DNA of 59,926 nt from Escherichia coli. GTDB taxonomy: Bacteria > Pseudomonadota > Gammaproteobacteria > Enterobacterales > Enterobacteriaceae. Positions 1 to 59,926 of this stretch are shown here, one piece after another. The notes below the pieces were generated by a model. The model was given only the letters and a program-made list of their open reading frames with translations, was not told where the DNA came from and searched no databases. The stretch lies in assembly GCF_003334765.1 (NCBI RefSeq), contig NZ_QOWT01000024.1. One strand, 5' to 3'. Both the position numbers and the translations under genes were made by a program. Position 1 is the stretch's first letter; every line of letters begins with the position of its first letter.

Positions 1-97
1 TTATCGTGAGAGTAATTCATCGGCACGTTAAATCATATCAGGCGTAATACCACAACCCTTAAGTTAGCGCTTATGGGGTTTTTCCCCACCGTTCAGG

Positions 98-492
98 GTG
101 TTCCCCGCGCCAGCGGGGATAAACCGGTCATCACGATGAATCAAAATTTCGCCCGGCTGTGTTCCCCGCGCCAGCGGGGATAAACCGCTTCTCCACCGTT
201 TGGCGAATCGGTGTGAGGGGTGTTCCCCGCGCCAGCGGGGATAAACCGATTGTTATAATTATTTATTGAAATATCATTCCGTGTTCCCCGCGCCAGCGGG
301 GATAAACCGAATCTATTGTGAATTTGAAATGGTCCAGCACTGTGTTCCCCGCGCCAGCGGGGATAAACCGGGTAAAAACACGGTCTGAACCGACATTCAT
401 GTGTGTTCCCCGCGTCAGCGGGGATAAACCGGGCGCACTGGATGCGATGATGGATATCACTTGGAGTTCCCCCGCCCCTGCGGTAGAACTCC
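98..492 (+). CRISPR. Type I-E CRISPR array: 7 direct repeats of 29 bp with 6 spacers of 32 bp; last repeat degenerate
   Basis: Repeat GTGTTCCCCGCGCCAGCGGGGATAAACCG at 98-126, 159-187, 220-248, 281-309, 342-370; variant with T at 415 at 403-431; degenerate terminal repeat GAGTTCCCCCGCCCCTGCGGTAGAACTCC at 464-492. Spacers at 127-158, 188-219, 249-280, 310-341, 371-402, 432-463, all exactly 32 bp. The repeat matches the E. coli type I-E repeat family. Confidence 0.95.
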
Positions 493-513
493 CAGCTCCC
501 ATTTTCAAACCCA

Positions 514-1551
514 TCAAGACGCCTTCGCCAGCTCCTTCACCAACGGTAGCATTATCCGCATAACGTCACGGCAGCGACGTTCTATTCTTCCAGGAAGTGC
601 CTTATCAATATGCTGTTGATTATCCAGTCTTACGTCATGCCAGCTATTTCCCGCAGGGAATGCGGCTGTTTTTGCGCGTTGCTGATAACCATCCTTATTC
701 CCAAGATTCCAGTTAGTCGCTTCCACCGAAAGTACAGCAATGCCCGCTTTGTCGAATATTTCTGCGTCATTACAACACCCAGTGCCTTTCGGATAATTTT
801 TATTCAAACCCGGATTGGTCGTTGCGGCTATTCCGTGACTGCGCGCAATTGCCAGCGCCCTGTCGCGCGTTAATTTCCTTACTGCTTCAGGGGTTTTTAC
901 ACCGCTGTTGAAATACAATTTATCGCCAACAATTAAGTTATCGAGATTAATCACCAGCAGCGTATTTTTCTTTTCGGTGTCACTCATCCGCTTGAGTAAA
1001 TTCTCAGCGCCTAATTTCCCTTCCTCTTCGCCGCTGGTCGCCACAAATCGAATACCATACTCGGTAGGCGTATTTTTCAGGCGTTCTGCCAATTCCAGCA
1101 TGACACCTAAACCTGCGGCGTTATCATCCATTCCTTGTAACGTCAGCCCGCCGAGATTGGCATCGGCGTCAGCATCGCTCAGCGGGGCGTAAGTATCCAG
1201 ATGCGCCATAATGATGATCTGCTGCGGCGCTTTGCCTTCATGAGCGGCAATCACCGTACTTCCTGTCACGTTATGCCAGTTCTTGCGATTATCGCGGGCG
1301 GTATAAATATACCGACTATTAAATGTCCGAATATCACTGCGATAACCCATTTGCTGAAACTGTTGGCGAATATAATCGGCAGATAACATTTCTGCTGGAG
1401 TTCCGGTCATGCGTCCCGGAAAGAAAGTAGCAATATGTCGTGCCTGGGTATTAGCAAAATCGCCAGGTTTAGGTGACGAGGCGTGTACGGGGAGAATAAA
1501 GCATACGCCGAGCGCTAGGGCAGCGGTACGGTGGCGCAATGCGGAAAACAT
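514..1551 (-). CDS. iap: Alkaline phosphatase isozyme conversion aminopeptidase
   Basis: 345 aa ORF, N-terminal signal peptide (MFSALRHRTAALALGVCFILPVHA), M28-type peptidase; lies next to the CRISPR array as in E. coli. Confidence 0.9.
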   Translation of the reverse strand: MFSALRHRTAALALGVCFILPVHASSPKPGDFANTQARHIATFFPGRMTGTPAEMLSADYIRQQFQQMGYRSDIRTFNSRYIYTARDNRKNWHNVTGSTVIAAHEGKAPQQIIIMAHLDTYAPLSDADADANLGGLTLQGMDDNAAGLGVMLELAERLKNTPTEYGIRFVATSGEEEGKLGAENLLKRMSDTEKKNTLLVINLDNLIVGDKLYFNSGVKTPEAVRKLTRDRALAIARSHGIAATTNPGLNKNYPKGTGCCNDAEIFDKAGIAVLSVEATNWNLGNKDGYQQRAKTAAFPAGNSWHDVRLDNQQHIDKALPGRIERRCRDVMRIMLPLVKELAKAS

Positions 1552-1802
1552 AGTGAGTCCTTAAATACCATGCAAATTTTTTTACCGCCATAGTATGAAA
1601 CTGCCGCTGCGCTAAAACAATTTCAAATCTTCCTAAACGCCCGAAATCCGGTGCCTTAAGCACTTTTTGATATTAGCTTTGCCAAATCGTTATTCCGTTA
1701 AGGAACTACTCATTCTAATTGGTAATTTCATTCGTTCTCTTACGCTCCCTATAGTCGAAACATCTGATGGCAAGAAAATAGCGGTATTGCAAAGGAACGG
1801 TT

Positions 1803-2711
1803 ATGGATCAAATACGACTTACTCACCTGCGGCAACTGGAGGCGGAAAGCATCCACATTATTCGCGAGGTGGCGGCAGAATTCTCAAATCCGGTGATGCT
1901 CTACTCTATCGGTAAAGATTCCAGCGTCATGCTGCATCTGGCGCGCAAGGCGTTTTATCCAGGTACGCTGCCTTTCCCGTTGCTGCATGTCGATACCGGC
2001 TGGAAATTCCGCGAGATGTATGAGTTCCGCGATCGTACGGCGAAAGCCTACGGCTGCGAGCTGCTGGTGCATAAAAACCCGGAAGGCGTGGCGATGGGGA
2101 TTAATCCATTCGTGCACGGCAGCGCGAAACATACCGATATTATGAAAACTGAAGGCCTGAAACAGGCGCTGAACAAATACGGTTTTGATGCCGCCTTCGG
2201 TGGTGCGCGCCGTGACGAAGAGAAATCCCGCGCTAAAGAGCGAATCTACTCTTTCCGTGACCGCTTCCATCGCTGGGATCCGAAAAATCAGCGCCCAGAG
2301 CTGTGGCACAACTACAACGGGCAAATTAACAAAGGCGAAAGCATCCGCGTCTTCCCGCTCTCTAACTGGACCGAGCAGGATATCTGGCAATACATCTGGC
2401 TGGAAAATATCGACATTGTGCCGCTGTATCTCGCTGCGGAACGTCCGGTTCTGGAACGCGACGGTATGTTGATGATGATTGATGACAACCGTATCGACCT
2501 GCAACCGGGCGAAGTGATTAAAAAACGGATGGTGCGTTTCCGTACGCTGGGCTGCTGGCCGCTGACCGGTGCGGTGGAGTCAAATGCACAAACACTACCG
2601 GAGATCATCGAAGAGATGCTGGTTTCTACCACCAGTGAACGTCAGGGCCGCGTGATTGACCGCGACCAGGCGGGGTCTATGGAGCTGAAAAAACGTCAGG
2701 GGTATTTTTAA
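1803..2711 (+). CDS. cysD: Sulfate adenylyltransferase subunit 2
   Basis: 302 aa ORF, PAPS reductase-like fold, recognised CysD sequence; followed by cysN with 1 bp spacing. Confidence 0.95.
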
Positions 2712-2712
2712 G

Positions 2713-4140
2713 ATGAACACCGCACTTGCACAACAAATCGCCAATGAAGGCGGCGTCGAAGCCTGGATGATTGCGCAACAACATAAAAGCCTGCTGCGTT
2801 TTCTGACCTGTGGTAGCGTCGATGACGGCAAAAGTACCCTGATTGGTCGCCTGCTGCACGATACCCGCCAAATCTACGAAGATCAGCTCTCATCGCTGCA
2901 TAACGACAGTAAACGTCACGGCACCCAGGGCGAAAAGCTGGATCTGGCACTGCTGGTGGACGGCCTGCAAGCTGAGCGCGAACAGGGCATCACCATTGAC
3001 GTGGCTTACCGCTATTTCTCTACCGAGAAGCGTAAATTTATTATCGCCGACACCCCAGGGCACGAGCAGTACACCCGCAATATGGCGACTGGCGCATCGA
3101 CATGTGAACTGGCGATCTTACTGATCGATGCCCGTAAAGGCGTGCTCGATCAAACCCGTCGTCACAGTTTTATCTCCACACTGTTGGGGATCAAACATCT
3201 GGTCGTGGCGATCAACAAAATGGATCTGGTGGATTACAGTGAAAAGACGTTCACCCGTATTCGTGAAGATTATCTGACCTTTGCCGGGCAGCTGCCGGGT
3301 AATCTGGATATCCGCTTTGTGCCGCTCTCTGCACTGGAAGGCGACAACGTGGCTTCGCAAAGTGAAAGTATGGCGTGGTACAGCGGTCCAACACTGCTCG
3401 AAGTGCTGGAAACCGTGGAGATCCAGCGAGTGGTGGATGCTCAGCCAATGCGCTTCCCGGTGCAGTACGTTAATCGCCCGAATCTCGATTTTCGTGGTTA
3501 CGCCGGAACGCTGGCATCCGGTCGCGTAGAAGTCGGGCAACGAGTCAAAGTGCTGCCCTCTGGTGTGGAATCAAACGTCGCCCGGATCGTGACTTTTGAT
3601 GGCGATCGCGAAGAAGCCTTTGCCGGAGAAGCGATCACCCTGGTGCTGACGGATGAGATCGACATCAGCCGTGGCGATCTGCTGCTGGCGGCAGACGAAG
3701 CGTTACCAGCTGTGCAGAGCGCGTCGGTGGATGTGGTATGGATGGCGGAACAGCCGCTTTCCCCGGGCCAGAGTTATGACATCAAAATTGCCGGTAAGAA
3801 GACGCGTGCTCGTGTTGATGGCATTCGTTATCAGGTTGATATTAATAACCTTACCCAACGCGAAGTTGAAAACCTGCCGCTGAACGGCATCGGCCTGGTG
3901 GATCTCACTTTTGACGAGCCACTGGTGTTAGATCGTTATCAGCAAAACCCGGTTACCGGTGGGCTGATTTTTATCGATCGCCTGAGCAATGTGACCGTAG
4001 GTGCCGGTATGGTGCATGAGCCAGTTAGCCAGGCAACTGCTGCGCCATCTGAATTTAGTGCATTCGAACTGGAATTGAATGCCCTGGTTCGCCGCCACTT
4101 TCCACACTGGGGCGCGCGCGATTTGCTGGGGGATAAATAA
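2713..4140 (+). CDS. cysN: Sulfate adenylyltransferase subunit 1 (GTPase)
   Basis: 475 aa ORF with GTP-binding motif [11 protein letters not shown]-Tu-like. Confidence 0.95.
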
Positions 4141-6352: not shown

Positions 6353-6831
6353 TGCGAATTGGACACGGTTTTGACGTACATGCCTTTGGCGGTGAAGGCC
6401 CAATTATCATTGGTGGCGTACGCATTCCTTACGAAAAAGGATTGCTGGCGCATTCTGATGGCGACGTGGCGCTCCATGCGTTGACCGATGCATTGCTTGG
6501 CGCGGCGGCGCTGGGGGATATCGGCAAGCTGTTCCCGGATACCGATCCGGCATTTAAAGGTGCCGATAGCCGCGAGCTGCTACGCGAAGCCTGGCGTCGT
6601 ATTCAGGCGAAGGGTTATACCCTTGGCAACGTCGATGTCACTATCATCGCTCAGGCACCGAAGATGTTGCCGCACATTCCACAAATGCGCGTGTTTATTG
6701 CCGAAGATCTCGGCTGCCATATGGATGATGTTAACGTGAAAGCCACTACTACGGAAAAACTGGGATTTACCGGACGTGGGGAAGGGATTGCCTGTGAAGC
6801 GGTGGCGCTACTCATTAAGGCAACAAAATGA
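6352..6831 (+). CDS. ispF: 2-C-methyl-D-erythritol 2,4-cyclodiphosphate synthase
   Basis: 159 aa ORF beginning [12 protein letters not shown], recognised IspF. Confidence 0.95.
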
Positions 6832-7857
6832 TTGAGTTTGATAATCTCACTTACCTCCACGGTAAACCGCAAGGCACCGGGCTGCTGAAAGCCAATCCGG
6901 AAGACTTTGTGGTGGTGGAAGATTTGGGCTTTGAGCCTGATGGTGAAGGTGAGCATATTCTGGTTAGAATCCTCAAAAACGGCTGCAATACCCGTTTTGT
7001 GGCGGATGCACTGGCGAAATTCCTGAAAATTCATGCCCGTGAAGTCAGCTTCGCTGGGCAAAAAGACAAACATGCTGTTACGGAACAGTGGTTATGCGCT
7101 CGCGTGCCGGGCAAGGAAATGCCCGATCTGAGCGCCTTTCAACTGGAAGGCTGCCAGGTGCTGGAGTATGCGCGGCACAAGCGCAAGCTGCGTTTAGGGG
7201 CGCTGAAAGGAAACGCCTTTACCCTGGTTCTGCGCGAAGTGAGCAATCGCGATGACGTTGAACAACGTCTGAACGATATTTGCGTAAAAGGTGTACCGAA
7301 CTACTTCGGTGCCCAACGTTTTGGGATTGGCGGTAGCAACTTGCAGGGGGCGCAGCGCTGGGCGCAAACCAATACTCCGGTGCGCGATCGCAATAAACGG
7401 AGTTTTTGGTTGTCGGCAGCCCGCAGTGCGTTGTTTAATCAGATTGTTGCTGAGCGCCTCAAAAAAGCAGACGTTAATCAAGTTGTTGACGGCGATGCGC
7501 TACAATTAGCCGGACGTGGTAGCTGGTTTGTCGCAACCACCGAAGAACTGGCGGAATTACAGCGTCGCGTTAACGATAAAGAGCTGATGATAACCGCCGC
7601 ATTGCCGGGCAGTGGCGAATGGGGAACTCAGCGTGAAGCGCTGGCATTCGAACAAGCAGCTGTCGCCGCAGAAACTGAATTACAAGCTTTACTGGTGCGC
7701 GAAAAAGTTGAAGCCGCGCGCAGAGCGATGCTGCTGTATCCGCAACAATTAAGCTGGAATTGGTGGGATGACGTCACCGTAGAGATCCGTTTCTGGCTTC
7801 CGGCGGGTAGTTTTGCAACCAGCGTTGTCAGGGAACTTATCAACACAACAGGTGATT

Positions 7858-7877
<20 letters not shown>
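6828..7877 (+). CDS. truD: tRNA pseudouridine(13) synthase
   Basis: 349 aa ORF, recognised TruD; 4 bp overlap with ispF. Confidence 0.93.
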
Positions 7878-9239
<1,362 letters not shown>

Positions 9240-9378
9240 AACGTGAGGAAATACCTGGATTTTTCCTGGTTATTTTGCCGCAGGTCAGCGTATCGTGAAC
9301 ATCTTTTCCAGTGTTCAGTAGGGTGCCTTGCACGGTAATTATGTCACTGGTTATTAACCAATTTTTCCTGGGGGATAA

Positions 9379-10518
9379 ATGAGCGCGGGAAGCCCAAAAT
9401 TCACCGTTCGCCGCATTGCGGCTTTGTCACTGGTTTCGCTATGGCTGGCAGGCTGTTCTGACACTTCAAATCCACCGGCACCGGTCAGCTCCGTTAATGG
9501 CAATGCGCCTGCAAATACTAATTCTGGTATGTTGATTACGCCGCCGCCGAAAATGGGGACGACGTCTACAGCGCAGCAACCGCAAATTCAGCCGGTACAG
9601 CAGCCACAAATTCAGGCTACTCAACAACCGCAAATCCAGCCAGTGCAGCCAGTAGCTCAGCAGCCGGTACAGATGGAAAACGGACGCATCGTCTATAACC
9701 GTCAGTATGGGAACATTCCGAAAGGCAGTTATAGCGGCAGTACCTATACCGTGAAAAAAGGCGACACACTTTTCTATATCGCCTGGATTACTGGCAACGA
9801 TTTCCGTGACCTTGCTCAGCGCAACAATATTCAGGCACCATACGCGCTGAACGTTGGTCAGACCTTGCAGGTGGGTAATGCTTCCGGTACGCCAATCACT
9901 GGCGGAAATGCCATTACCCAGGCCGACGCAGCAGAGCAAGGAGTTGTGATCAAGCCTGCACAAAATTCCACCGTTGCTGTTGCGTCGCAACCGACAATTA
10001 CGTATTCTGAATCTTCGGGTGAACAGAGTGCTAACAAAATGTTGCCGAACAACAAGCCAGCTGCGACCACGGTCACAGCGCCTGTAACGGTACCAACAGC
10101 AAGCACAACCGAGCCAACTGTCAGCAGTACATCAACCAGTACGCCTATCTCCACCTGGCGCTGGCCGACTGAGGGCAAAGTGATCGAAACCTTTGGCGCT
10201 TCTGAGGGGGGCAACAAGGGGATTGATATCGCAGGCAGCAAAGGACAGGCAATTATCGCGACCGCAGATGGCCGCGTTGTTTATGCTGGTAACGCGCTGC
10301 GCGGCTACGGTAATCTGATTATCATCAAACATAATGATGATTACCTGAGTGCCTACGCCCATAACGACACAATGCTGGTCCGGGAACAACAAGAAGTGAA
10401 GGCGGGGCAAAAAATAGCAACCATGGGTAGCACCGGAACCAGTTCAACACGCTTGCATTTTGAAATTCGTTACAAGGGGAAATCCGTAAACCCGCTGCGT
10501 TATTTGCCGCAGCGATAA
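9379..10518 (+). CDS. nlpD: Murein hydrolase activator lipoprotein NlpD (LysM plus degenerate M23 domain)
   Basis: 379 aa ORF, lipobox LAGCS, internal QQPQIQ repeats, C-terminal M23-like domain. Confidence 0.95.
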
Positions 10519-10580
10519 ATCGGCGGAACCAGGCTTTTGCTTGAATGTTCCGTCAAGGGATCACGGGTAGGAGCCACCTT

Positions 10581-11573
10581 ATGAGTCAGAATACGCTGAA
10601 AGTTCATGATTTAAATGAAGATGCGGAATTTGATGAGAACGGAGTTGAGGTTTTTGACGAAAAGGCCTTAGTAGAAGAGGAACCCAGTGATAACGATTTG
10701 GCCGAAGAGGAACTGTTATCGCAGGGAGCCACACAGCGTGTGTTGGACGCGACTCAGCTTTACCTTGGTGAGATTGGTTATTCACCACTGTTAACGGCCG
10801 AAGAAGAAGTTTATTTTGCGCGTCGCGCACTGCGTGGAGATGTCGCCTCTCGCCGCCGGATGATCGAGAGTAACTTGCGTCTGGTGGTAAAAATTGCCCG
10901 CCGTTATGGCAATCGTGGTCTGGCGTTGCTGGACCTTATCGAAGAGGGCAACCTGGGGCTGATCCGCGCGGTAGAGAAGTTTGACCCGGAACGTGGTTTC
11001 CGCTTCTCAACATACGCAACCTGGTGGATTCGCCAGACGATTGAACGGGCGATTATGAACCAAACCCGTACTATTCGTTTGCCGATTCACATCGTAAAGG
11101 AGCTGAACGTTTACCTGCGAACCGCACGTGAGTTGTCCCATAAGCTGGACCATGAACCAAGTGCGGAAGAGATCGCAGAGCAACTGGATAAGCCAGTTGA
11201 TGACGTCAGCCGTATGCTTCGTCTTAACGAGCGCATTACCTCGGTAGACACCCCGCTGGGTGGTGATTCCGAAAAAGCGTTGCTGGACATCCTGGCCGAT
11301 GAAAAAGAGAACGGTCCGGAAGATACCACGCAAGATGACGATATGAAGCAGAGCATCGTCAAATGGCTGTTCGAGCTGAACGCCAAACAGCGTGAAGTGC
11401 TGGCACGTCGATTCGGTTTGCTGGGGTACGAAGCGGCAACACTGGAAGATGTAGGTCGTGAAATTGGCCTCACCCGTGAACGTGTTCGCCAGATTCAGGT
11501 TGAAGGCCTGCGCCGTTTGCGTGAAATCCTGCAAACGCAGGGGCTGAATATCGAAGCGCTGTTCCGCGAGTAA
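10581..11573 (+). CDS. rpoS: RNA polymerase sigma factor RpoS (sigma-38)
   Basis: ORF track 10545-11573; conserved N-terminus [21 protein letters not shown] begins at the internal ATG at 10581, giving 330 aa; sigma-70 family regions recognisable. Confidence 0.95.
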
Positions 11574-11588
11574 GTAAGCATCTGTCAG

Positions 11589-11661
11589 AAAGGCCAGTCT
11601 CAAGCGAGGCTGGCCTTTTCTGTGCACAATAAAAGGTCCGATGCCCATCGGACCTTTTTAT
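11589..11661. terminator. Bidirectional intrinsic terminators between convergent rpoS and ygbN
   Basis: Hairpin AGGCCAG-N12-CTGGCCT flanked by AAA and TTTT (11589-11620); hairpin GGTCCGATG-N3-CATCGGACC flanked by AAAA and TTTTTATT (11631-11662). Confidence 0.85.
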
Positions 11662-11666
11662 TAAGG

Positions 11667-13031
11667 TCAAATTACCGCCCATACGCACCAGGTAATTAAG
11701 AATCCGGTAAAACCGAGAATGGTCGTTAACACTGTCCAGGTTTTCAGACCGTCTGCTACCGATAACCCCAGATATTTGGTCACAATCCAGAACCCTGAGT
11801 CATTAATATGTGACGCACCAAGCCCACCAAAGCAGGCTGCCAGCGTCACCAATACGCACTGAATCGGATTCAATCCCATCACCGCTTCTGAGAGTAACCC
11901 GCCGGTTGTCAGTATTGCTACGGTTGCTGACCCCTGCGATGCACGCAGCGCCAGTGAAATAATAAATGCGGCTGGTAACAGAGGCAGGTCAATCATTTGT
12001 AGCATGTTGGCAAGGGCTTTGCCGACGCCCGATTCCACCAGCACTTTGCCAAATACCCCTCCAGCACCAGTAACCAAAATCACTACCGCCGCAGTAGGAA
12101 GCGCTGAGCCCATAATGTCGCTGGTGTGTTGTAAGCTCCAGCCGCGACGTAAAGCCAATAACCAGAATGCCAGCACCAGCGCAATCATTAGAGCTACCAT
12201 TGGTGAGCCGATCAGCTGTAGCGTACCAAGCAGGGGATGCGAAGGCGGCATCAGTGTTGCGGAAACCGTACCCGCCATGATAATCGCGATAGGAATAACA
12301 ATTAGCGAGGTGACCAGCGCGACGCCCGGTGGATTTATTTTATCGCTTAATTTTGTCGCGCCTTCCTCACTGGCCGGAGCCAGTTGCATCTGTTCCAGTA
12401 CTTCTACTGACATCGCATATTGGCGCTTATTGATTATTTTCGCTGCAAAGTAGCCAACAACCCCTACGGGAATAGAAATCGCAATACCGATGATGGTTAG
12501 CCAGCCGATGTCTGCGTGGAGTAACCCCGCTGCGGCGACAGGGCCTGGATGCGGCGGTACCGCCACGTGAACAGTGAGCATGATCCCAGCGACAGGCAGG
12601 CCAAATTTGAGTGGCGATATTTTGGCAACCTTGGCAAAACCGTAAATGATTGGCGCAAGAATAATAAAGCCGACATCAAAGAAGACGGGAATACCGAGGA
12701 AGAACGCTGCCAGAGTCAGCGCAGCGATAGTTCGTTTGTCACCTAACTTGCGACTGAAATAATTAGCCAGTGACTCTGCACCACCAGAGTGTTCGATCAT
12801 ACGCCCCAGCATAGCGCCCAGACCAATAATAATAGTGACGGAACCAAGCACACCGCCCATCCCGGCGATCATCACTTTACCCACTTCGCCCGCCGGTATA
12901 CCCGCCGCAAGTGCGACTAACAGGCTGACGAGGAGCAGAGCAACGAATGGTTGTACCTTTGCCTTGATGACCAGCAGCAACAGCATGATTACGCCAGTTA
13001 ACGCAATGCATAACAATGTAATTGTGGACAT
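11667..13031 (-). CDS. ygbN: GntP-family acid-sugar permease
   Basis: 454 aa polytopic membrane ORF typical of gluconate:H+ symporter family. Confidence 0.85.
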   Translation of the reverse strand: MSTITLLCIALTGVIMLLLLVIKAKVQPFVALLLVSLLVALAAGIPAGEVGKVMIAGMGGVLGSVTIIIGLGAMLGRMIEHSGGAESLANYFSRKLGDKRTIAALTLAAFFLGIPVFFDVGFIILAPIIYGFAKVAKISPLKFGLPVAGIMLTVHVAVPPHPGPVAAAGLLHADIGWLTIIGIAISIPVGVVGYFAAKIINKRQYAMSVEVLEQMQLAPASEEGATKLSDKINPPGVALVTSLIVIPIAIIMAGTVSATLMPPSHPLLGTLQLIGSPMVALMIALVLAFWLLALRRGWSLQHTSDIMGSALPTAAVVILVTGAGGVFGKVLVESGVGKALANMLQMIDLPLLPAAFIISLALRASQGSATVAILTTGGLLSEAVMGLNPIQCVLVTLAACFGGLGASHINDSGFWIVTKYLGLSVADGLKTWTVLTTILGFTGFLITWCVWAVI

Positions 13032-13119
13032 GGGAAACCCTGTCTGAAAGTTATAGTTAACCTACCCCATCCGTAGATGGGGGGATGTATGGGTACGTTG
13101 TAATTAGGGATTTAACGAA

Positions 13120-13896
13120 TTAGCGCCAGGCGTCAAACCAGCCAAGCCCTTCTTCGGTGAGGCCACGAGGTTTATATTCACAACCGATCCAGCCCTGATA
13201 TCCCACCTCATCGAACAGGCGGAACAGCCACGGATAGTTGATTTCTCCATCGTCCGGTTCATGTCGATCAGGTAGTCCGGCAATTTGTACGTGCGCATAT
13301 TTCCCGGCGTAGTCGCGGATTAAATGCGTCAGGTTGCCATCTACTTTTTGCGCATGAAAAGTATCTAGTTGAATAAACACGTTATCTCGCGCAACTTCTT
13401 CAACAATAGCCAGTGCCTGATACTGGCTGGAGAAGAGATAATGAGGCTTAACGCCGGGGCTGAGTGCTTCAACTAATATTCGCTTGCCGTGTGGCGCAAA
13501 GCGGTCGGCAGCGTAGCGGAGATTATCGATAAATACTGCCCGGTACCGTTCAGCATCTTCGCCAGCGGGCACGACGCCTGCCATCACATGGACTTGTTCA
13601 CAATTGAGCGCCAATGCATATTCCAGTGCCAGGTCGATGTCTGCGTGTGCTTCGTGCTCACGTCCGGGAAGGGCGGATAATCCCCATTCCCCCGCATTAA
13701 TATCTCCGGGAGCGGTATTGAACAGCGCCAGTGTCAGATGGTTTTGCTCCAGTTGCTTTTGGATTTGCAGGGTGGAGTAGTCATAGGGAAACAGAAATTC
13801 CACAGCATCGAACCCGGCTTTTCGCGCTGCGGCGAAGCGTTCAATAAAAGGCACTTCGGTGAACATCATGGATAAATTAGCTGCAAAACGAGGCAT
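13120..13896 (-). CDS. ygbM: Hydroxypyruvate isomerase-family TIM-barrel enzyme (2-oxo-tetronate isomerase)
   Basis: 258 aa ORF, xylose isomerase-like fold family; functional name from published DUF1537 pathway work, recalled not verified. Confidence 0.8.
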
Positions 13897-13900
13897 TGCA

Positions 13901-14539
13901 TTAACTCCTTAATTCCGCAATTTCACCTGCGGTCAGATAACGGATCGGGCGGTCACCGAGAATAAAAATCAGCTTTGCCGTTTCCTCCAGCTCTTCCATA
14001 TTGTTGGCGGCTTCTTGCAGGCTTTCACCGCAAACCACTGGGCCATGATTTGCCAGTAAAAAAGCCTGATTGTCTGCTGCCAGTTCCGCCAGATCCTGTG
14101 CGATGCGTTTATCGCCCGGTCGGTAATAAGGCACCAGCGGGACATTTCCCATCCGCATCACCACGTATGGTGTGAACGGACGAATAACGTTGCTGCTGTC
14201 CAGCCCTTGCAGGCAGGAAAGCGCCGTCGACCATGTGCTGTGCAAATGCACCACCGCTTTACAACGCGGATTGTTGCGATACAGCGCCAGATGAAAGAGC
14301 ACCTCTTTCGAGGGTTTGTCACCACTTAACCATTCGCCATCCGCGGCGACTTTGGAAAGCCGCTGCGGATCGAGATTGCCCAGGCATGAACCTGTCGGTG
14401 TCGCCAGTAAATTCCCGTCAGGTAAAAGCAGCGACAGATTGCCAGCCGAACCGGTTGCATAGCCGCGCTGAAAGAATGAACTGGCAATCCGCGTCATCTC
14501 CTCTCGCAAAGACTGCTCTACTTTTGCGAAATCGCTCAT
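13901..14539 (-). CDS. ygbL: Class II aldolase/adducin-family enzyme (3-oxo-tetronate 4-phosphate decarboxylase)
   Basis: 212 aa ORF; 4 bp overlap with ygbK. Confidence 0.8.
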
Positions 14540-59487: not shown

Positions 59488-59580
59488 GGTGAGGTGGCCG
59501 AGAGGCTGAAGGCGCTCCCCTGCTAAGGGAGTATGCGGTCAAAAGCTGCATCCGGGGTTCGAATCCCCGCCTCACCGCCA
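59488..59580 (+). tRNA. serV: tRNA-Ser (anticodon GCU), long variable arm
   Basis: 93 nt; acceptor stem GGTGAGG...CCTCACC plus CCA, anticodon loop CCTGCTAAGG, T-loop GGTTCGAATCC. Confidence 0.93.
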
Positions 59581-59583
59581 TTT

Positions 59584-59660
59584 GCATCCGTAGCTCAGCT
59601 GGATAGAGTACTCGGCTACGAACCGAGCGGTCGGAGGTTCGAATCCTCCCGGATGCACCA
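59584..59660 (+). tRNA. argV: tRNA-Arg (anticodon ACG)
   Basis: 77 nt; GCATCCG acceptor stem, anticodon loop GGCTACGAACC, T-loop GGTTCGAATCC, 3' CCA; 3 nt after serV. Confidence 0.93.
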
Positions 59661-59858
59661 TATTCTACGTACTTTCAGCGATGAAGGTATGGAAGAGGTG
59701 GCGGTAATAACCGCAGGCACCAGGGAGGATAACGTTGCTTTAGCAACGGCCCGAAGGGCGAGCCGCAAGGCGAGTAATCCTCCCGGATGCACCATCTCTT
59801 ACTTGATACGGCTTTAGTAGCGGTATCAAAAAATCTGCAGTAAAGTAAGTTTCCCGAT

Positions 59859-59926
59859 GCATCCGTAGCTCAGCTGGATAGAGTACTCGGCTACGAACCG
59901 AGCGGTCGGAGGTTCGAATCCTCCCG
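59859..59926 (+). tRNA. argY: tRNA-Arg (ACG), second tandem copy, truncated by the window end
   Basis: Identical to the first 68 nt of the copy at 59584-59660; starts exactly 275 bp after it. Confidence 0.85.

Follow-up and report, generated by a model that had tools for sequence, protein, structure and literature searches.

What a short CRISPR array is doing beside iap with neither a leader nor cas genes at its side is the question raised by this stretch of Escherichia coli DNA (59,926 nt of contig NZ_QOWT01000024.1, assembly GCF_003334765.1), which in its full length is referred to here as the window. Our answer, to which we assign a probability of about 93%, is that the array is the leader-distal stump of the CRISPR-I (CRISPR2.1) locus, left after the insertion sequence IS186 removed everything upstream. 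The features on which this reading depends lie at the left end of the window:

1-75, minus strand: right-hand end of IS186/IS421 (IS4 family), assigned by identity to the copy in strain FORC 064 and by the PGAP annotation of identical genomes.
76-97, plus strand: last 22 nt of a truncated spacer, sp11 (GGGTTTTTCCCCACCGTTCAGG), which is intact in strain J6 directly upstream of S1.
98-126, 159-187, 220-248, 281-309, 342-370 and 403-431, plus strand: repeats 1 to 6, type I-E.
127-158, 188-219, 249-280, 310-341 and 371-402, plus strand: spacers S1 to S5.
432-463, plus strand: spacer S6, the oldest, common to K-12 and all other arrays examined.
464-492, plus strand: degenerate terminal repeat at the leader-distal end of the array; the same unit occurs in K-12, E. 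coli B, J6 and strain 774.
514-1551, minus strand: iap (alkaline phosphatase isozyme conversion aminopeptidase), a 345-aa ORF named from the annotation of an identical sequence.

The array is composed of six 29-nt type I-E repeats (GTGTTCCCCGCGCCAGCGGGGATAAACCG), which start at 98, 159, 220, 281, 342 and 403 with an exact period of 61 nt, and of six spacers of 32 nt each. Repeats 1 to 5 are perfect copies, repeat 6 carries C415T in the GCCA loop of the repeat hairpin, and the terminal repeat (GAGTTCCCCCGCCCCTGCGGTAGAACTCC) is so degenerate that a search for repeat copies at up to 9 substitutions missed it; the same search found no other copy in the entire 59.9-kb window. Because six 29-mers recur exactly at a fixed period, C415T aside, a chance origin is excluded. 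The repeat, with its palindromic CCCCGC...GCGGGG core, lies one position from the K-12 repeat and marks the array as the E. coli type I-E array CRISPR2.1 (CRISPR-I). On its right, across a gap of 21 bp (493-513), iap converges on the array and forms the conserved right boundary of the CRISPR-I locus, with cysD starting at 1803. A preliminary description of this DNA had reported these repeats, the six spacers, the degenerate unit, the C to T change and the 21 bp to the iap stop, and all of its coordinates and spacer sequences were confirmed.

General-purpose annotation recovered little of this. TRF detected the array only in part (220-370), because the spacers are unrelated to one another, and Rfam at gathering thresholds returned no CRISPR repeat family anywhere in the window, only three tRNAs at 59.5-59.9 kb. 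These three tRNA genes occupy 59488-59926, the last of them cut by the window edge; they agree with the serV-argV tRNA cluster of K-12, some 60 kb away from its iap, and the window would then be roughly colinear with K-12. A promoter and terminator scan of 1-600 gave one promoter-like site within S3 and one terminator-like site within iap, both at chance frequency, and no promoter-like site on the plus strand before repeat 1. None of the cas genes (cas3, cse1, cse2, cas7, cas5, cas6e, cas1, cas2) is present inside the window.

The 97 bp in front of repeat 1 are the end of an IS186 followed by a spacer remnant, not a leader. Our alignments gave no match to the leader end of K-12 (...ATGTATACTTTTAGA) or of the other E. 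coli variant (...GTTATGTATGCTTAGT), and neither leader variant, L1 (J6, strain 774) or L2 (K-12), precedes repeat 1. Instead, the 23-bp terminal inverted repeat of IS186, CAACCCTTAAGTTAGCGCTTATG, occupies 53-75, and the transposase gene, whose start codon is at 20-18, is on the minus strand and reads away from the array. When window positions 1-560 were searched by megablast against 5,426 complete E. coli genomes, the 40 best matches all had 100% coverage and 100% identity, and PGAP had annotated them as an IS4-like element IS421 family transposase, the CRISPR and iap, in this order. The complete element in FORC 064 measures 1,339 bp, ends in the 23-bp inverted repeats CATAAGCGCTAACTTAAGGGTTG and CAACCCTTAAGTTAGCGCTTATG, and is identical to K-12 IS186A at 1339/1339 positions; only 75 bp of it fall within the window. 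The preliminary description had rightly judged 1-97 to be unlike the K-12 leader, but it recognised neither the IS186 end nor the spacer remnant. It had also allowed for an ordinary array, with 1-97 aligning to the known leader or with six spacers in the reference array as well; neither was found. Its statement that the K-12 array is about twice as long was sound, as K-12 has 13 spacers at this locus and shares S6 alone with the window.

Complete genomes show what lies to the left of position 1 in close relatives. FORC 064, which matches the window without a single difference over 14,560 bp, has the gene order cysJ, cysI, cysH, hok, IS186, array, iap, cysD, and its cysH and iap stops are about 2.2 kb apart. 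E. coli B ATCC 11303 matches FORC 064 in gene order, in both IS junction sequences and in the IS itself, and in both genomes the leader and cas3-cas2 are absent between cysH/hok and the array. In strain 774, cas3 through cas2 are retained between hok and the array, and the hok-side site reads ...CGCGGGGGTAAAACCCCGCG..., a terminator hairpin after hok; IS186 insertion at the CRISPR-I locus occurs 21 nt after the hok stop. The flanks of the IS in window-type genomes, ...GGGGGTAAAACC on the left and GGGTTTTTCCCC... on the right, derive from the hok terminator and from sp11, respectively. No target-site duplication surrounds the element, the left flank being GGGTAAAACC and the right flank GGGTTTTTCC. 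Because the duplication is missing and the flanks come from two different sites, the IS stands at a deletion joint.

The state before the deletion is represented by strain J6, which was retrieved with a chimeric query in which the non-K-12 cas2 and leader were joined to the remnant-R1-S1-R2-S2 segment. J6 has IS186 beside hok, in the same place and orientation as in window-type genomes and with a clean 10-bp duplication (GGGTAAAACC); its cas3-cas2 operon is intact, its leader is present and its array holds 18 spacers. The eleventh of these is the intact sp11 (32 nt, AGTTAAGAGGGGGTTTTTCCCCACCGTTCAGG), followed immediately by S1, S2, S3, S4, S4, S5 and S6. Because sp11 stands intact directly before S1 in J6, positions 76-97 of the window are its last 22 nt, the first ten of which (76-85, GGGTTTTTCC) represent a single copy of the 10-bp target that IS186 duplicates. 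Strain 774, whose array came closest among those free of IS186 in a spread sample, was set aside: it shares only S3-S6 and lacks the parent of the 22-nt remnant.

The reciprocal junction, a repeat followed by AGTTAAGAGGGGGTTTTTCC and the left end of the IS, is present at 100% identity in three genomes (HSP425, AF58 and ES4), in all of which the IS is flanked on both sides by GGGTTTTTCC within sp11. HSP425 and AF58 carry two IS186 copies in direct orientation, each with its own 10-bp duplication (GGGTAAAACC and GGGTTTTTCC), in the order hok, IS186, cas3, casA'-cas2 fusion, leader, array part 1, IS186, array part 2, iap; the fusion deletes casB-cas1. ES4 has IS186 in sp11 with casA-cas2 upstream. 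A comparison of HSP425 with the window over 11,777 bases shows one difference. The segment available for deletion comprises 9,497 bp plus one IS copy in a J6-like locus and 4,624 bp plus one IS copy in an HSP425-like locus. About 24 further genomes, such as ECCHD184, have two IS186 copies at these hok and sp11 sites in inverted orientation, and the region that they enclose, cas3 to array part 1, is itself inverted. The loci concerned are:

HSP425, locus positions 7087-14388: closed genome with two direct IS186 copies.
AF58, locus positions 6648-13888: closed genome with two direct IS186 copies.
ECCHD184, NZ_CP033250.1, about 1,019,000-1,033,300: inverted locus.

The inverted state was rejected for the window, as the IS adjoining S1 in ECCHD184 has the opposite orientation. 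Both orientations of IS186 are thus represented at the sp11 site, suggesting either a hot spot or events that recurred.

These genomes suggest the following history. The ancestor would have had hok, the cas3...cas2 operon of the cas-E1 variant, leader L1, about 17-22 spacers and iap. A first IS186 would have landed immediately behind hok, in the G/C-rich hairpin of the terminator (target GGGGGTAAAACCCC, duplication GGGTAAAACC), and a second, in the same orientation, in sp11, where a target of this kind also occurs (GGGGGTTTTTCCCC, duplication GGGTTTTTCC). The two direct copies would then have undergone homologous recombination, with loss of the cas operon, the leader and the more recent spacers, so that one IS186 remained between the hok flank and the last 22 nt of sp11; window positions 1-97 would be the right-hand part of this product. 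Recombination of two direct copies yields the hybrid flanks of window-type genomes exactly, and the two-IS genomes make this two-step route plausible for the window lineage. A contracted array or a rearranged leader-cas junction had been proposed at the outset, and this proposal fits: IS186 stands in place of the leader, the cas operon and ten or more leader-proximal spacers, and truncates an eleventh. The suggestion of a different strain also held, since the array derives from a non-K-12 cas-E/leader variant with only the oldest spacer in common.

A one-step route would leave the same product. Here the hok-side IS186 would have attacked GGGGGTTTTTCCCC in sp11 intramolecularly, giving an adjacent deletion without a stable two-IS intermediate. 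The right flank does start at precisely the base where the staggered cut by IS186 in this target would be expected, and the roughly 24 genomes in which cas and array part 1 are inverted between inverted IS copies at the same site resemble the reciprocal type of outcome. However, cut-and-paste elements of the IS4 family, of which IS186 is a member, do not as a rule give replicative deletions or inversions, and genomes with two direct copies exist that are nearly identical to the window, so that recombination would require nothing further. We therefore consider the one-step route improbable, and prefer recombination between two direct copies.

How common the deletion is can be estimated from the junctions. 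The junction in the orientation of the window (query 1-126) occurs in 279 of the 5,426 complete E. coli genomes, and the junction in either orientation (query 36-126) in 303. Only 3/279 also contain the junction between the 5' part of sp11 and the IS, so that about 276 complete genomes, or about 5%, are presumed to be in the deletion state, a figure for which the hok side was inspected in two. These counts bear on a further alternative, namely that the source genome is itself a two-IS intermediate, with a simple IS insertion into sp11 and the rest of the array, the leader and all or part of the cas operon lying just upstream of the window. The right-hand junction is the same in both states, and HSP425, which is an intermediate, is only one base from the window over the 11,777 compared. 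Yet the matching junction on the far side of the IS is confined to 3 of the 279 genomes, and the 14,560 bp identical to FORC 064 come from a genome in the deletion state. An intermediate source is thus very improbable. As the window starts within the IS, its upstream side has to be read from relatives; both the 276:3 ratio and the perfect match to a genome in the deletion state indicate that the source almost certainly carries the deletion.

Two remaining explanations have negligible probability. The joint of hok, IS and array might be an assembly artefact in which two IS copies collapsed, as the window starts in a multicopy IS, a frequent break point of short-read contigs; but the window holds only the right junction, which is real in every state, and the deletion joint is found in genomes that are complete and closed, among them several independent assemblies of E. 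coli B. That the array is ordinary and active, with 1-97 as an unusual, moderately AT-rich leader, would agree with the position of these bases next to repeat 1, but it is refuted by the identity of 1-75 to the IS186 terminus, transposase start and inverted repeat included, by the origin of 76-97 in a known spacer and by the failure of either E. coli leader variant to align.

E. coli B genomes topped the junction search, but the window is not from a B strain: ATCC 11303 is 97.7% identical to window positions 281-3560 (iap-cysD) over 3,284 bp, a divergence of 2.3%, whereas J6 and HSP425 reach 99.2-99.99% there. That E. coli B shares the junctions despite this divergence may reflect either later recombination or transfer of the deleted allele. 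The identity of junctions and IS across divergent iap-cysD sequences hints at such recombination or transfer between lineages.

A broader interpretation is possible, although we hold it to be doubtful. The sp11 spacer, which contains GGGGGTTTTTCCCC, may be an IS186 hot spot that was hit more than once and repeatedly caused loss of the CRISPR-Cas system (279 genomes), inversion (about 24) and splitting (3), so that immune memory would have seeded the destruction of its own system. The window lineage, at 1 SNP per 11.8 kb from a two-IS strain, would then represent a recent and possibly recurrent deletion, or, alternatively, the source would itself be a rare two-IS intermediate.

The remaining spacers retain traces of what the system once met. 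S5 matches the phage-plasmids P1, P7 and SJ46 and many P1-like plasmids at 32/32 positions; its protospacer in P7 is at 93,995-94,026 in gene upf94.2, directly preceded by CTG, whereas an AAG occurs 3 nt farther upstream. The CTG in place of AAG at the P1/P7 protospacer could reflect slipped acquisition or PAM drift in the phage. S2 matches a TIR-domain gene of an IncF plasmid, also at 32/32, with the canonical AAG PAM. For sp11, S1, S3, S4 and S6, no phage match was obtained at E<=0.1. Two 4.9-Mb PLSDB records (NZ_CP141089.1 and NZ_CP134663.1) match S5-S6 and look like chromosomes filed as plasmids. Within the stump, spacers are frequently lost or duplicated by recombination between repeats: S4 is tandemly duplicated in J6 (sp15 = sp16; J6 locus 12274-12366), and internal losses affect S5 in E. 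coli B, S2 in AF58, and S3-S4 in ES4 and ECCHD184.

In type I-E systems, the leader carries the array promoter and the integration site, Cas1-Cas2 are required for acquisition, and crRNA maturation and interference depend on Cas6e, Cascade and Cas3. Because the stump has no leader, and thus no promoter or integration site, and no adjacent Cas1-Cas2, Cas6e, Cascade or Cas3, we infer that it can neither acquire spacers nor make working crRNAs. The sole adjacent promoter, that of the IS186 transposase, is directed away from the array. The array is probably best seen as inert, a fossil that documents earlier contacts with elements such as P1-like phage-plasmids and an IncF plasmid. A different element is found in the leader of strain 774 (11603-12930) and ES4 (10568-11776), where ISVsa5 (IS10-like) lies a few bases before repeat 1. 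Its duplication in strain 774 is TGCTTAGTG, and cas3 of this strain is frameshifted; ISVsa5 in the leader represents another inactivation route for the CRISPR-I locus.

For annotation, the locus should be recorded as a leaderless orphan CRISPR-I stump and not scored as a functional type I-E system, with 1-97 labelled as an IS186 end and a spacer remnant in place of a leader. Beyond annotation, the finding matters little.

Compared with known systems, the window resembles the CRISPR-I locus of K-12 MG1655 (cas-E2, leader L2) in its position on the iap side, repeat family, S6 and degenerate terminal repeat. The K-12 array differs in its 13 spacers, none of which except S6 is found in the window, in its intact leader and eight cas genes, and in repeats that start with GAG where those of the window start with GTG; hok is truncated in K-12. 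K-12 was therefore rejected as the reference for contraction, being another cas/leader variant that shares only S6, and J6 and HSP425 are the proper comparators. A closer counterpart is E. coli B, with BL21(DE3) and BL21-AI, the naturally cas-less host that is standard in type I-E studies: the junctions and IS of ATCC 11303 are identical to those of the window, and its array consists of S1 (with 1 SNP), S2, S3, S4 and S6, having lost the S5 that the window keeps. BL21 has been described as a natural mutant lacking cas3 and Cascade (PMC12235044).

The insertion sites agree with what is known of IS186. Three targets show a G-run/C-run pattern with a 10-bp duplication, namely GGGGGTAAAACCCC at hok, GGGGGTTTTTCCCC in sp11 and GGGGATCACTCCCC at K-12 IS186A, and 10-bp duplications at simple insertions were seen in J6, HSP425, AF58 and ES4. 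IS186 reportedly has the target consensus G4-N(5-6)-C4, a rule said to go back to SaiSree and colleagues. K-12 IS186A (NC_000913.3, 15,387-16,731) lies beside hokC/mokC in a GGGG-N6-CCCC target with the duplication GGATCACTCC, which parallels the hok-side insertion. A hot spot for IS186 in the lon promoter of E. coli B is attributed to SaiSree et al. 2001 in the passage of PMC3045373 that cites it. The target described here lies instead in a CRISPR spacer, that is, in DNA imported by the CRISPR system itself.

The arrangement as a whole is already known, and at about 5% of complete E. coli genomes it is an ordinary one. The survey of the iap-cysH region by Almendros et al. 2014 (mBio 5:e00767-13, PMC3903273) places IS186 at the hok-side boundary and within CRISPR2.1, and describes an 'arrangement G' consisting of hok/sok, IS186, a truncated CRISPR2.1 and iap, without the L1 leader and cas-E1; its authors infer that leader L1, cas-E1 and some of the array were lost through IS186 recombination. 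Locus, IS, proposed mechanism and losses in this account are those found here, with the right half of arrangement G in the window and the left half in genomes with an identical locus. Our observations add only two points to it. The array-side breakpoint lies exactly within a spacer and not a repeat, whereas the survey places IS186 targets 'mostly within the repeats'. Moreover, the two-IS state, which the 2014 model had to postulate (AH1/AH2, in its hypothetical scheme), now exists in at least 2-3 complete genomes, with the closed genomes HSP425 and AF58 carrying the exact 10-bp duplications that predict the hybrid flanks of the window, and the inverted state likewise exists in real genomes.
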